A stretch of DNA of 64,000 nucleotides, taken from contig CM075993.1 of NCBI GenBank assembly GCA_038087875.1, forward strand, positions 5,210,001 to 5,274,000. Direction: 5' to 3'. This stretch comes from Malacoraja senta. Lineage: Eukaryota. This document shows, piece after piece, positions 42,901 to 58,221 of this stretch (positions are counted from its first letter, which is position 1; each line of letters starts with the position of its first letter). Made by a program: the position numbers and the translations under genes. A model generated the notes under the pieces. It saw only the letters and a list, made by a program, of their open reading frames with translations, was not told where the DNA came from and ran no database searches.

Positions 42901-43534
42901 GGTGAATCTGTGGAATTCATTGGCACAGATGGCGGAGGAGGCCAAGACATCGGGTATTTTTAATCCTCAAAGGCCGTTGGTTTTAATGTTACTTTCATAG
43001 CAACATCCACATCCTGTGCTTTCTTAAAAAAAGTAATCGTAGACATGACATGCAATAAGTTAAGCTACTGATTTGAATGGAAGTTGGGCAAGGCAATATT
43101 AAATTGGTCAGAAGAAGAGTCCAAACCTGAACATCGTTTGACCATTTCCTTCTAAGCGCCTAACCACTGAAAAGCACTTAGTGTTTTGCTGAAGCCAATA
43201 CTAAAGTTGGGTGATTCTTCTGGTTGAGAATGAATCAAGTCTGCAGTGAACATTAGCTTCTGCTTTTGCTTGTGGTTTGGGAGTGTTGAGTGTAATGTGT
43301 GTGTGTGGTGCACAGAAACTGGAATGCCATGTGTGGAAACTTACATAAAGCCGCTCTAGTTTCTTTGAATTAAAAAAAAAACTTCCTTCGAGGATCTGAA
43401 GATGGGTCCCGACCCAAAATGTCGCCTCTCTATGTTCGCCAAAGATGCTGCCTGACCCGCTGGATTACTCCAGCACTTTGTGTCCTGCACCTGCAGTTCC
43501 TAGTTTCTATTTTTCTTTGACTTTTATTGCGCAG

Positions 43535-43747
43535 AAATCTGGCAAGAAGGCAGCCTGGCCCAAGGGAAGGAAAAGGAAAAAAGCGACCAAGGACAGCAAT
43601 GCTCCCAAAGCCCCGCTCACTGGGTATGTGAGGTTCCTCAACCAGCGCCGGGAGCAGCTTCGATCCCAGCGGCCGGATGTGCCATTCTCCGAAATCACGA
43701 GGATGTTGGGGAATGAATGGAGTAAACTGCCTGCGGACGATAAACAG
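43535..43747 (+). CDS. HMG20A: HMG20A coding exon 3, basic region and HMG box
   Basis: [61 protein letters not shown] acceptor, CAG|GTATTG donor, 213 nt, phase 0 to 0. Confidence 0.97.
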
Positions 43748-44176
43748 GTATTGAAACGTTGGGTTGGAAACCAAGTGTAACGTATCTGACATTCCGCAGC
43801 TGTTGACAAGTTCACAAGTTATAGGAGTAGAATTAGGCAATTCAGCCCTTCGAGTCTGCCCCGCCATTCAATCATGGTTGAACTCTGTATCCTAATCCCA
43901 CTTTCCTGCCTTCTCCCCAAAACCCTTGAGACACGTTCGAATCAATAATTTGTCGATCCCTGCCTTAAAAAACACTTGTTGACCACATGGATGCAATCTG
44001 AGTGATTACTTATGATAGAAGACCTTCTCCATAACATGATCAACAGAGCATGTGTTAATGTATGGGATGGTGAGCATGAAGATGTGATTTGTTGCAGCAA
44101 CTGTGCACAGTGACAGATTTGTATGCCTACAAGTGTCTAGGCACGATTTCTCCTGTTGATAAAATTGTCTTGTTTA

Positions 44177-53204: not shown

Positions 53205-53985
53205 AGTTTAGTTTATATTTTTGCACGTGTACCGAGGTATAGTGAAAAGCTTTTTATGCTGTTGTGTGCCAACAAGATTATACATGATTACAATCAAACT
53301 GTCCACGGTAAAGGGAATAATGTTTAGTGCAAGGTAAAGTCCGATTAAAGATAGTCTGAGGGTCTCCAATGAGGTAGATGGAAGGTCAGGACCGCGCTCT
53401 GGTTGGTGACAGGATGGTTCAGTTACCTGACAGCAGCTGGGAAGAAACAGTCCCTGAATCTGGAGGTGTGCGTTTTCACACTTCTGTACCTCTTGCCTGA
53501 TGGGAGAGGGGAGAAGAGGGAGTGTCTGGGGTGTGACTGTTCCTTGTTTATGCTGCTGGCAGCGACACAAGGCAGCGTGAAGTGTTGATGGTGTCAATGG
53601 AAGGGAGGTACACAAAAATGCTGGAGAAACTCAGCGGGTGCAGCAGCATCTATGGAGCGAAGGAAATAGGCAACGTTTTGGGCCGAAACCCTTCTTCAGA
53701 CCTCCTCCTCTCAATGGAAGGGAGGTTGGTTTATGTGATGGTCTGTACTGCGTCTGCAATTGTTTGCGGTCTTGGATGGAGCTGTTCCCAAACCTTGCTG
53801 TGATGCATCCCGAAAAATGCTTTCTGCGGCGAATCAGTAGAAGTGGGTGAGAGTTATGGGGGCATGCTGAACTTCCTAAGCTGCCTATGGAAGGATATGC
53901 GTTGGCGTGCATTCCTGGCCATTGCTACGAAATGTGTGGTCCAGGACAAGTTGCTGGTGATATTTACTCCTAGGAATTTGAAGTA
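53205..53985 (-). mobile_element. Rex1/Babar-like LINE fragment interrupted by a Penelope pLTR piece (53610-53710)
   Basis: SGCITARFGNSSIQDRKQLQ. The insert is bounded by a perfect 16-nt repeat tcaatggaagggaggt (53594-53609 / 53711-53726). Confidence 0.8.
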
Positions 53986-54477: not shown

Positions 54478-54614
54478 GTTCTGGGGAGACGCCCACCTTG
54501 GATACCATTGATTCCTACATGAGGAAATTACACGGCATTATTCTGTCCAACCCACAAAGTAGTGAGAATCTCATTACTACAGTGCGTGACTTAGTTAGTC
54601 GACTCGACAGGTGA
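54478..54614 (+). CDS. HMG20A: HMG20A last main coding exon ((G)SGETPTLDTIDSYMRKLHGIILSNPQSSENLITTVRDLVSRLDR*)
   Basis: Matches the HMG20A C-terminus. TTGCAG acceptor, TGA at 54612-54614. Summed exons give 1056 nt from ATG 35043, i.e. 351 aa plus stop. Confidence 0.95.
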
Positions 54615-54850
54615 GCAGATCAGGCAGATGCGCTGCATCAAAAAGCACTTTGAGGTTATCTTATCTCAGCCATGATCACAACATTTTCTATGTTTCTATG
54701 TTTATTGTGGATTCTGTGTTGCTACTTAATTTGTTTTTTTCTTAATTGGACAGTCTCTTGAATGAATGTTTGCAGGTACTGTTTCGACAATGATTGGTGA
54801 CTGTGGAGCTATATGGTACAGACTGAATTGACAATTATATAAAGAAATGT

Positions 54851-55159
54851 GGGGCGGCACTCTGACTCATCTGGTAGAGCCGCTGCCCCACAGCACCGGT
54901 GACCCGGGTTCAATCCTGTCCTCGGGTGCTGTCTGTATGGAGTTAGCACGTTCTCCTTGTGACTGCATGGGTTTCCTCCGCCAGCTCCAGTTTCCTCCCA
55001 CACCCTAACGATGTGTGGGTTTATGGGTTAATTGGCCTTAGTGTGTAGGGAGTGGATGAAAAAGTGGGTCAGCATAGAATTAATATGAATGGGTGATTGA
55101 TGGTTGGCGTGGACGTTGGGCCGAAGGGCCTGTTTCCGTGCTGTATCTTTAAACTAAAT
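54851..55159 (+). mobile_element. V-SINE (HE1-like)
   Basis: ggggcggcac head, gggttcaatcc B box, ctgtatctttaaactaaa tail. Confidence 0.82.
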
Positions 55160-55482
55160 CCTGTAAACTATACTGTCCAAGTATATTAAACCTACCTCAA
55201 CAATTTCTTCTGGCAGCTCGTTCCATATACCTACCCCTTTCTGTGTTTAAAAAGTTGCCTCTCAGCTTCCTGTTATATCTTTTCCCCTCACCTTAAACTT
55301 ATGCCCTCTAGTCCTTGATTCCTCTACACTAGGAAAAATATTGTGTACATTCACCCTGCTTATTCCCCTCGTGATCTTGTATATCTCTATAAGATCACAG
55401 GTACATTCCTACGAATCTGAACCGTTGAGCACACCAAAAGTAAAATCGAAGTAAGAGAAACAGGGCACACTATTAATGTGCC

Positions 55483-55646
55483 CGAGAAGGAACTGCAGAT
55501 GCTGGAAAATCGAAGGTAGACAAAAATGCTGGAGAAACTCAGCAGCATCTATGGAGCGAAGGAAATAGGCGATGTTTCGGGTCGCCATTTCCTTCGCTCC
55601 ATAGATGCTGCCTCACCCACCAAGTTTCTCCAACATTTTTGTCTAC
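55483..55646. mobile_element. Inverted Penelope-type pLTR pair with 13-nt TSD
   Basis: ctattaatgtgcc at 55470-55482 and 55647-55659. Confidence 0.78.
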
Positions 55647-56913
55647 CTATTAATGTGCCAGGTGGTTTCCAGTTGAATCATTGTGCAAAATGATTGCCCC
55701 AGCATATGTTTAGTGCCATAACCTTGCCAGAAGAGCAACAAAATTGAGATTTAAGTTTCCCTTTGAAGCTGCAATATGACAGATTCGACGTGCCTTTAAA
55801 AAAATATATCTATTGATTGCAACCATTAAAGCTTCAAAAATTAGTTCCTCCACAATGGAGTTTGAAGTATGAAGTTTAACGGGTGTGGGCAGCCACTGTG
55901 CACATTCCCAGCAAGGAATTTATTCCACCATGGGGAAAAAGCGGAAGAATATTGGAGGAGGAAAGGAATGTTTATTTGACTCAAAGCCCATCAACATAAA
56001 ACTATTTTGGGTTTTAACATCTGTTTTCAACAATATTGCCTGATAGTGGCAGAAACCAGATGCAAAGGAAAAATATGTTGGATGATTAAACTGAGTAGTT
56101 TTAACATCAGCCTTCCAGTTCTGGTTAGATTATTAAATCTTTGTCATGTCGTAAGTCTTAATGGAACATAATGTTTTTTTTAAAGTTAACATGGATTCTT
56201 TCTCTTTGCTCCCTTCACCTAGTTGAAATTGTGGTTGACCGTCGAGGCATCAACATCTGTACACACAGCTGGGCAGTGGGAAATGGAAGGGGCCACTGGA
56301 TTTTCAATGGAAATAAAATGGCAGCTACTGTTTCTGGCCTTGAAATTTAGCCTGACCTGGAGAAGGATTGTTCCTTTCATTTCAAGAGACCTAACATCGG
56401 AGTGCTACAGGCGATTGCTGCTGGGTTGTCTCTTGTTAGTTGGCAGCGTTGATGTCTTTTTAACTCCTCCATGATTGTTCTCTTGCCAAATTTCCCTGTG
56501 TTAATTGTATGTTATGTTATGTAGCAATTGAGCCATTCTGTGCTCAAACAAAATCATTTATTTAATTATGTTTTGTTATAAAAGGATGTTTTCTCTCTTC
56601 TCTTTACGGGGCAGCAAATAAGCTGAAGTTGGGAACTCATCGGGTCATTTTCGGACACACTGGCTGGTACGCCAAATATCAGACTATTTATGATATGAAC
56701 AGGGTAACCTGTTGATGGAATTGGTCATAATACCATCAGAGTAGGACAGGAAAACAATGTTCGGTATCATCTTTTATCCCCAATGCTAACTAATGTAGCA
56801 GTGTCATAGAATTGTAAAAATTTGAAGCACAGGCCATTCTGCCCATTATGGTCATGTCTGGTATAAAAGAACTACTTAAGCTAACCTCACTTCCCAGTCC
56901 TCCGTCAGTTGCT

Positions 56914-57036
56914 TCTTGCGTAAGGCGTGCGCAGCCTAAAGTTGTAGGACAACTTGTTCTATTTGATTGTGCACACGGGGTTGATTGCATTCGTTGCAAC
57001 AGGGCGGACCACCTGAAGGTTGCAATCTCCCACCCC
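56914..57036 (-). mobile_element. 123-nt non-autonomous retroelement: 5' HDV-like ribozyme plus structured LINE-like 3' tail
   Basis: Flanked by imperfect direct repeats cgtcagttgct (56903-56913) and agtcagttact (57037-57047). The 5' boundary is G1 of the ribozyme. The 3' half has nested stems and ends ...CTTACGCAAGA(AG). Confidence 0.75.
56983..57036 (-). ncRNA. Minimal HDV-like (CPEB3-type) self-cleaving ribozyme, 54 nt
   Basis: The - strand reads GGGGUGG GA GAUUGCA ACC UUCAGGU GGU CCGCCCU GU UGCAA CGAA UGCAAUC. This parses as P1 (7 bp with G1-U wobble), P2 (7 bp perfect), P3 (3 bp), 7-nt L3, GU for P1.1, vestigial P4, and J4/2 CGAA with the catalytic C. Activity untested. Confidence 0.85.
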
Positions 57037-57907
57037 AGTCAGTTACTGATGAGAACAAAAATAGCCTTCCTATCGGCTATATTTCTGTCATTTACTTTAA
57101 ATGTGTGCACCTTATTAAGAGTGTTCTCCGCAAGGGAAATGTCATTCCCTGTTCCTCTTGTCAAGTCTTCTCAAAAGTTTACGACCTTGCGTAAGTACTG
57201 CAGCTGTTTTTCAGGAAAGCCGATTTCCAACCAGCCTCTCATGGTAACTAAGGCTGTCGAGTCTTGTAAATCTTCCGACAATATCGTGCTATAATTGGCC
57301 CCCATCCCCTGAAAGTTGGGAGGGAGTGAATAATCCGTCTTCTCCATCCTAGTTGGAGTATCTCCTTCAAAATACATTTTCATAAGGTCACATGATAGGA
57401 GCAGAATTAGGCTATTCGGCCCATCAAGTGTACCCCGCCATTCAATCATGGCTGATCTATCTCTCTCACCTAACCCCATTCTCCTGCCTTCTCCCCATAA
57501 CCCTTGACACCCGTACTAATCAAGAATCTATCTCTGCCTCAAGTAAGAGAAAAGAACTAAAGATAAGGAACTAAATCCATCCAATGAAAGATGATTGACC
57601 TGAAATGTTCAATTTGTTTCTCTGCAGCTGCTTTCTAATCTTATAGGGCATTTTTCAAATCTATTCTAGCATTTCTTGCTTGTATTTTAGATTTCCACAA
57701 TTTACAGTGCTTTGCTTCTGTAAATCAGCATTGATGCATCTTGCAGCGAGATGGTCACTGTTGCTGGAGAAGGAATTAGTGCTGATTGCAGAATCCAAGT
57801 GCATCCTGATTATTCACGCTGCCCACATCTTGCCACCCCGGCCCTACTGTGGAATAGATTACCCAAACTCTGCAGGCTTCCATGCAAAATGAGAACTTGA
57901 CCAACCT

Positions 57908-58221
57908 ACGGTGGAACAGTGGTAGAGTTGTTGCCTTCACAGCCCTTGCAGCGCCGGAGACCCTGGTTCGATCCTGACTACAGGCGCTGTCTGTACGGAG
58001 TTTGTCCGTTCTCCCCGTGACCGCATGGGTCTTTTTTCTGATATCTTCGGTTTCCTCCCACACTCCAAAGACGTACAGGTATGTAGGTAAATTGGCTTGG
58101 TATAAGTGTAAATTGTCCCTAGTGTGTGTAGGAAAGTGTTAATGTGCAGGGATCGCTGGTCGGTGCCAGCTTGGTGGACCGAAGAGCCTGTTTCTGCGCT
58201 GTATCTCTAAACTAAACTAAA
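57908..58221 (+). mobile_element. V-SINE (HE1-like), well preserved
   Basis: tRNA-like head with ggttcgatcc, V-like core, CR1-like tail ending (ctaaa)n. Confidence 0.85.

Follow-up and report, generated by a model that had tools for sequence, protein, structure and literature searches.

A miniature element with a predicted HDV-like ribozyme head in Malacoraja senta, most probably made of the two ends of a Vingi-type LINE

The best explanation for the minus-strand sequence that runs from 57036 to 56912 in the stretch of Malacoraja senta DNA analysed here (64,000 nucleotides, GenBank assembly GCA_038087875.1, contig CM075993.1, positions 5,210,001 to 5,274,000; called the window below) is that it is one copy of an abundant noncoding element consisting of the first and the last parts of a 3.07-kb Vingi-type LINE, and we hold this to be very likely. 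The element is an internally deleted LINE; it is neither a polymerase III (Pol III) SINE nor a ribozyme that was added to a LINE tail. Modelling of its head predicts an HDV-like ribozyme, the first base of which is the first base of the element. The parts of the window copy and the nearest exon are as follows, in window positions.

54480 to 54614, plus strand: last identified coding exon of an HMG20-type gene, with a possible splice donor at 54611 and a possible acceptor at 56222.
57037 to 57047, minus strand: target-site duplication (TSD), 5'-side copy, matching 56903 to 56913 at 9 of 11 letters.
56983 to 57036, minus strand: predicted HDV-like ribozyme fold of 54 nt, with G1 at 57036 and the predicted catalytic C at 56993 (from descriptor fit, column counts, and pair changes across lineages).
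56968 to 56977, minus strand: LINE 5'-UTR segment directly behind the ribozyme, complementary to the tail (from the folding of natural copies and duplex energies).
56948 to 56967, minus strand: remodelled middle piece that departs from the LINE 5' UTR, with one 10-nt unit (two in the 135-nt subfamily).
56912 to 56947, minus strand: LINE 3' end, comprising the last ORF codons, the TAG stop (56938 to 56936), a short 3' UTR and the AAG tail (from ORF-end pattern matches and translations).
56903 to 56913, minus strand: TSD, tail-side copy, overlapping the last two letters of the tail.

The imperfect 11-nt direct repeats that the original prediction had placed around the unit are thus confirmed as a TSD. 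The unit itself was given as 56914 to 57036; its G1 end at 57036 stands, and its tail end moves to 56912. Because the duplication begins with the two letters that end the tail, the element measures 123 to 125 nt. The window copy matches the 5' end of a decayed LINE copy at 87% over 71 nt. The segment directly behind the ribozyme pairs with the tail at all 10 positions in a typical copy and at 8 of 10 in the window copy, and the middle piece together with the start of the tail forms a 7-bp hairpin.

The element belongs to a large family. A genome search with it gave 2,848 first-look candidates, and all 40 that were scored had E-values below 1e−43. Exact patterns for the 29-nt head and the 23-nt tail matched 3,768 and 3,050 times, respectively, and their controls did not match at all. 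Over the initial 59 Mb of contig 1, the two patterns have 26 matches in common, among 100 for the head and 85 for the tail, which gives about 12,000 copies, probably an underestimate, since young copies match both patterns more often; for the 1.9-Gb genome this is a density of about 6 copies per Mb. We aligned 88 distinct short copies, a sample that was drawn from fetched loci and is biased towards the queries, and 83 of them align from position 1 or 2, while the 20 nt upstream are only 27% alike on average. A TSD was recognized in 73 of the 88, compared with 7 of 872 mismatched pairs, and was mostly 11 to 12 nt long (46 of 73). The window copy falls below the score of the script used for these 88 copies because of its terminal mismatch. 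Multiple copies with 5' ends piled up at G1 behind unrelated sequence, variable TSDs and AAG-like tails had all been expected, and all were seen. The 88 copies come in three forms, namely, the clean deletion (19 copies), a 135-nt form (31 copies) and the 125-nt form of the window type (38 copies), and the implied per-base identity of the miniatures to the pattern is 0.94 to 0.96. The base before G1 is T in 49 of the 83 copies, and many TSDs start with A/G letters shared with the AAG tail, which suggests pairing between tail and target at priming. The family may already be catalogued in Dfam or Repbase. No relative of the element was found on viral contigs.

The first 54 nt of the window copy fit the full HDV-like descriptor. 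P1 has seven of seven pairs (including a G1-U wobble), P2 seven of seven and P3 three of three, with a 7-nt L3, a one-pair P1.1 (C22-G37) and CGAA in J4/2; P4 is nearly absent, with about one pair left and a loop of 4 nt. Across both strands of the window (128 kb), this element gave the only match to the strict descriptor. The position from which nearly all short copies align is G1 of the fold, in agreement with the proposal that the 5' end of the unit is the predicted self-cleavage site. An Rfam search reported no ribozyme at the window copy and no match to RF00622 for the window copy, L002 or L155, and free-energy folding of the window copy was no better than that of shuffled sequences (z, −0.27). 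Both outcomes are expected for a pseudoknot; all the same, the lack of an Rfam match counts against reading the head as a ribozyme.

The conservation of the fold among copies and lineages is consistent with a ribozyme. All pairs and core bases are kept in 52 of 68 copies, and the catalytic C44, U20 and G25, whose roles are described in the available parts of PMC10879173 and 10.1101/2022.09.22.508989, occur in 67, 68 and 67 of these copies, respectively. The differences between the forms of the element preserve the fold: an A-U pair in P1 became G-U, and the other changes lie in the unpaired J1/2 and J4/2. Across eight lineages, for which the representatives were picked by hand, P1 positions 5 to 7 and most positions of P2 and P3 hold two to four pair types, the outer P1 pairs and most pairs of P2 and P3 change on both sides, and 6 of the 136 cells of the pair table are unpaired. 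A family that was chosen afterwards by protein likeness (L327, L331) also carries the fold, as do two distant metagenome relatives, L212 and, with a looser descriptor only, L272; one of 20 metagenome 5' regions passed the first descriptor, and most of the others were cut or decayed. We have high confidence that ribozyme heads occur across Vingi. On a further metagenome contig (L198, 427 to 560), an intact Vingi-like LINE has an HDV-like-looking head with a long hairpin inserted in L3; judged by eye, it has seven of seven P2 pairs, a CTAA junction and an imperfect P1, and it is an unusual variant.

The window copy departs from this conserved pattern. Position 24 in L3 (57013) is G here and C in 59 of 68 copies, and the P4 loop has lost its UUCG type. 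Judging from this letter and the lost loop, the window copy probably has reduced activity and may not cut at all; the literature searched gave no measurement of the effect of altering L3 position 24. The near absence of P4 is a feature shared with HDV-like ribozymes that are active in vitro according to the available part of PMC10879173. Because the predicted minimal ribozyme exists in thousands of natural versions, the family provides material for assays.

Could the main role of the head instead be that of an internal Pol II promoter, with transcription starting at G1 and an inherited fold whose cutting does not define the 5' end? Promoter and ribozyme share the same 77 nt in Pr77 of L1Tc/NARTc, as stated in the available part of PMC3383444, some SIDER heads with correct-looking folds are inactive (PMC4035085, likewise available in part), and a promoter, too, would make the full-length 5' ends look alike. 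We nevertheless consider this unlikely, given that the element begins exactly where the fold would be cut, that the pairs covary across the eight lineages and that the catalytic C is retained in all but one of 68 copies. The two roles are not mutually exclusive, and the preferred reading, in which a ribozyme sets the 5' end, has room for a promoter in the same head, which leaves the idea of the original prediction, that self-cleavage replaces a promoter, a conjecture.

The partner LINE surfaced through an ORF-end pattern built from the stop-codon context of the tail, which matched the genome 117 times (control, 0); searching with either half of the element, head or tail, had yielded only short copies (60 loci). 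These 117 matches are the 3' ends of a LINE of ~3.07 kb, most copies of which are 5' truncated. The LINE has a single ORF encoding an AP endonuclease (PF14529), a reverse transcriptase (RT) (PF00078) and a C-terminal cysteine motif; it starts with the same ribozyme fold as the element and shares both its 5' and 3' ends. L191, a near-full copy, begins at the head and has a TSD. Long autonomous elements sharing both termini had been anticipated, and this LINE is such an element in a decayed state: its copies are 87 to 95% identical to each other, and among matches with at least 61% identity no intact ORF was seen, the longest open frame being 681 amino acids. As to its type, the original prediction had named Ingi/Vingi or RTE as candidates for a mobilizing LINE that shares the 3' end; the Vingi type is the probable one, RTE is not the partner, and the sharing extends to the 5' end.

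The way in which the LINE was shortened can be read from its junctions. Among 30 loci with the LINE 5'-UTR pattern, 8 are LINE heads and 22 are clean head-plus-tail deletions, in which LINE base 96, ten bases before the start codon, is joined to the last 29 bases and the tail over a 2-nt microhomology, a shared TC. The middle would have been remodelled later, giving the 135-nt form and then the 125-nt form. L088, which combines the older head with the newer middle, is the sole intermediate that links the forms, and no LINE with a window-type middle was found, all eight matches carrying the older 5' UTR; the passage from the clean deletion to the window type is therefore documented by this one copy. 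In L321, about 140 nt of head are joined in the same orientation to about 215 nt of 3' end, with a TSD, and this copy is an independent deletion product.

Several relatives of the partner LINE came up alongside it. P0001, which represents a cluster of three, encodes an intact protein of 1,019 amino acids that is 72% identical to a decayed partner copy, the next matches having 43 to 46% identity; it is possibly the result of a transfer or a living relative of the partner lineage. Three younger Vingi-like LINE families (L305 to L309, L325 to L332, and L333 and L334) have copies that are 96 to 98% identical and open frames of up to 940 to 986 amino acids, and two of the three have ribozyme-fold heads. 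Many matches of the 44% group lie about 10 to 18 kb apart on small contigs, resembling tandem arrays.

The existence of such young families, next to a cognate LINE that has decayed, would fit a scheme in which the window-type subfamily is mobilized by a different, younger Vingi LINE and not by the LINE that donated its ends. The tails of the younger families differ, whereas the cognate tail matches letter for letter, and the identity of the miniatures to their pattern fits the age of the cognate LINE, which makes a change of partner improbable. We therefore retain the LINE that shares both ends as the one that mobilized the element.

This LINE appears, from its sequence, to group with Vingi. 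An RT tree of 39 rows unites the partner with P0001 and further compact elements in one clade at 100/99; relatives with RNase H fall outside it, and so do two rows that were read as CR1-like. The tree held no named Vingi protein, and the name comes from the definition of the clade and from the head of one member. In the available part of PMC13708176, Vingi is defined by a compact single ORF with an AP endonuclease and an RT. The partner has these features, and RNase H was found neither in eight pieces spanning its ORF nor in the intact P0001, while it is present in five longer relatives. The head of L305, a clade member of 3.14 kb, looks, on visual comparison, like the 5' ends of Vingi-2_Gav, Vingi-4_Crp, Vingi-2_SPur and Vingi-1_BF in the available part of the supplement of PMC5786205. 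A search of the ESM Atlas returned only generic RT clusters.

At its locus, the window copy lies antisense to an HMG20-type gene on the plus strand, whose HMG box exon is at 43460 to 43756 and which we take to be HMG20A as opposed to HMG20B. The exon at 54480 to 54614, for which Pfam reports no family, presumably belongs to this gene, as judged by likeness to HMG20-type genes. The element is 2.3 kb past this exon and is 3' untranslated or flanking on either splicing reading, so that the predicted antisense position in the 3' region of the gene was correct. Contigs of organisms A, C, E and F and one unlabelled run bridge the insertion junction, with flanks that are a few percent diverged except in A. 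The empty site that the original prediction expected in related species was not seen among the junctions listed, which come from eight runs selected for holding the sequence, and the contigs of B and D reach only 22 to 27 letters into the element. Nothing suggests a role for the window copy. One might argue that it has been kept as a functional regulator that cuts the antisense RNA of the HMG20-type gene, pointing to the insertion common to several organisms at this place and to the intact P1 to P3 helices, but at the density of the family one copy in 64 kb is unsurprising, its L3 position 24 and its P4 loop are not those of most copies, and the compared runs were chosen for holding the sequence; we regard this as very improbable. 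More plausibly, the window copy would be an old passenger that cuts poorly if at all.

Other repeats lie nearby. Window positions 57393 to 57530 hold another very abundant repeat, with far more contigs than the ribozyme element. A long imperfect palindromic repeat at 55523 to 55625 and 53620 to 53700 has weak matches to microRNA models below their cut-offs and is probably MITE-like or SINE associated. The repeats at 57910 to 58220 and 54850 to 55160 resemble what we assume to be the HE1/V-type tRNA SINE of cartilaginous fishes.

That the ribozyme-headed element is an ordinary Pol III SINE, with a tRNA, 5S or 7SL head, a Vingi tail and a fold that arose by chance, is hardly credible in spite of its SINE-like size and copy number and its unremarkable plain folding: the head comes from the 5' end of the LINE, which refutes it, the strict descriptor matched once in 128 kb, and, as predicted, tRNA A and B boxes are absent (with one mismatch allowed, the sense strand has neither and the antisense strand has a single A-like match; ARAGORN reports no tRNA).

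How is the element copied? We hypothesize that its RNA is made by RNA polymerase II read-through or from a promoter inside the head and that the ribozyme then sets the 5' end. The LINE protein would recognize the tail and copy the RNA by target-primed reverse transcription, as the TSDs, the tails and the shared ends suggest. A further element of the model may be a contact between the RNA ends. In folded natural copies, the bases behind the ribozyme form a 10-bp helix with the tail, and similar complementarity between 5' and 3' ends, in unrelated letters, is found in sister families. Seven families were selected once the complementarity had been noticed, and for two of them the 5' and the 3' end were taken from separate copies; among the 5,040 permutations of 5' and 3' segments, the cognate combination ranked first. 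Six of these seven beat at least 486 of 500 shuffles; the exception was F3, for which 75 of 500 shuffles were as good. In an eighth family, F6, which was tested blind, end pairing was not significant (416 of 1,000 shuffles as good), so that complementarity between the tail and the RNA that follows the ribozyme is seen in six of eight families; a ninth (L333, L334) had no 5' end.

Inverted copies may also bear on this contact. Thirty LINE copies were picked by their tail only, and seven contain an inverted piece. Six of the seven pieces come from the first 480 nt, reach to within ~20 nt of G1 and are joined to a 3' piece that lies 1.5 to 2.8 kb further on, which suggests that, at second-strand priming, the head lies close to the site of insertion. 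Where the inverted pieces end would be explained by a strong stop at the pseudoknot, but where they start would not. We see roughly equal chances for and against the end pairing being functional, and the same balance applies to the proposal that the helix between the tail and the segment behind the ribozyme holds the RNA ends together and thereby favours deletions and head-carrying inversions. A narrow literature search did not find this reading of the ends. According to the available part of PMC13708176, Vingi UTRs serve as templates for gene insertion; if our proposal is true, the 5' ribozyme, the end-to-end helix and the head-carrying inversions bear on the design of insertion templates and on truncated products.

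The Vingi heads also point to the CPEB3 ribozyme. Its model, RF00622, matched this genome 51 times, with 39 matches above the cut-off of 35 bits and a best score of 64.2 bits; controls gave none. By their heads, the 30 matches that were fetched fall into five repeat families: 12 are heads of the young 3.14-kb LINE, 12 are heads of three older families, 9 of which are inverted against pieces of Vingi-like ORFs, and 6 are copies of another miniature with an AAG tail. This second ribozyme-headed miniature (L295, L297, L301 to L304) is about 150 to 185 nt long and has a CPEB3-like core without P4; at least four of its copies have TSDs, and its tail resembles that of the LINE in L333 and L334. The window family is a cousin of the CPEB3-like heads and not one of them. 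It shares with CPEB3 a 7-nt L3 of the same majority sequence, the one-pair P1.1, the G1-U wobble and the same J4/2, but it has other letters in P1 to P3, lacks P4 and fails to match the model. The CPEB3 ribozyme, moreover, occurs as one copy in intron 2 of the gene CPEB3, whereas the window copy is found in the 3' region of an HMG20-type gene. Bendixsen 2021 (PMC8233481), in its available part, states that the CPEB3 ribozyme was not found outside mammals, and a search of the literature library gave no paper containing both Vingi and CPEB3. On the basis of the sequences, sister Vingi LINEs that start with CPEB3-like heads are a probable source of the mammalian ribozyme, the origin of which thereby becomes testable. 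In the complete picture, Vingi RNAs would cut themselves at the 5' end, a conserved helix would clamp their two ends together, miniatures and head-carrying inversions would result, and mammals would have domesticated a stranded Vingi 5' end as the CPEB3 ribozyme; this combination is tentative and less likely than not to hold in full.

In its design, the element has known relatives. NARTc/L1Tc and RIME/ingi of trypanosomes, as described in the available parts of PMC4035085 and PMC3383444, are closest: NARTc and RIME are also short, combine the 5' and 3' ends of a LINE, have an HDV-like ribozyme at +1 and TSDs of ~12 bp, and depend on LINEs of a sister clade. In contrast to them, our element has a partner without RNase H (Vingi, not Ingi), a length of 125 to 135 nt, a fold of 54 nt instead of 77 nt, an AAG tail and a genome-wide dispersal in its thousands of copies. 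The R2 SIDEs of Drosophila (PMC3414825, available in part) likewise unite a ribozyme and a LINE 3' end through internal deletion, but R2 is site specific in 28S rDNA and has another type of endonuclease, and the SIDEs are described there as rare. Kojima 2018 (PMC5786205, available in part) lists Vingi as one of four clades that make bipartite derivatives and names the nonautonomous derivatives of Vingi-1_EE. The minimal P4-less HDV-like and theta ribozymes have the same HDV-like core without P4; in the available part of PMC10879173 they are reported from metagenomes and from phages of the gut, where they often neighbour tRNAs, and not as the heads of retroelements. Hence, the combination of a ribozyme head with a LINE tail is known from trypanosomes and Drosophila, and what is new here is the Vingi partner, the P4-less fold of 54 nt and the thousands of copies.
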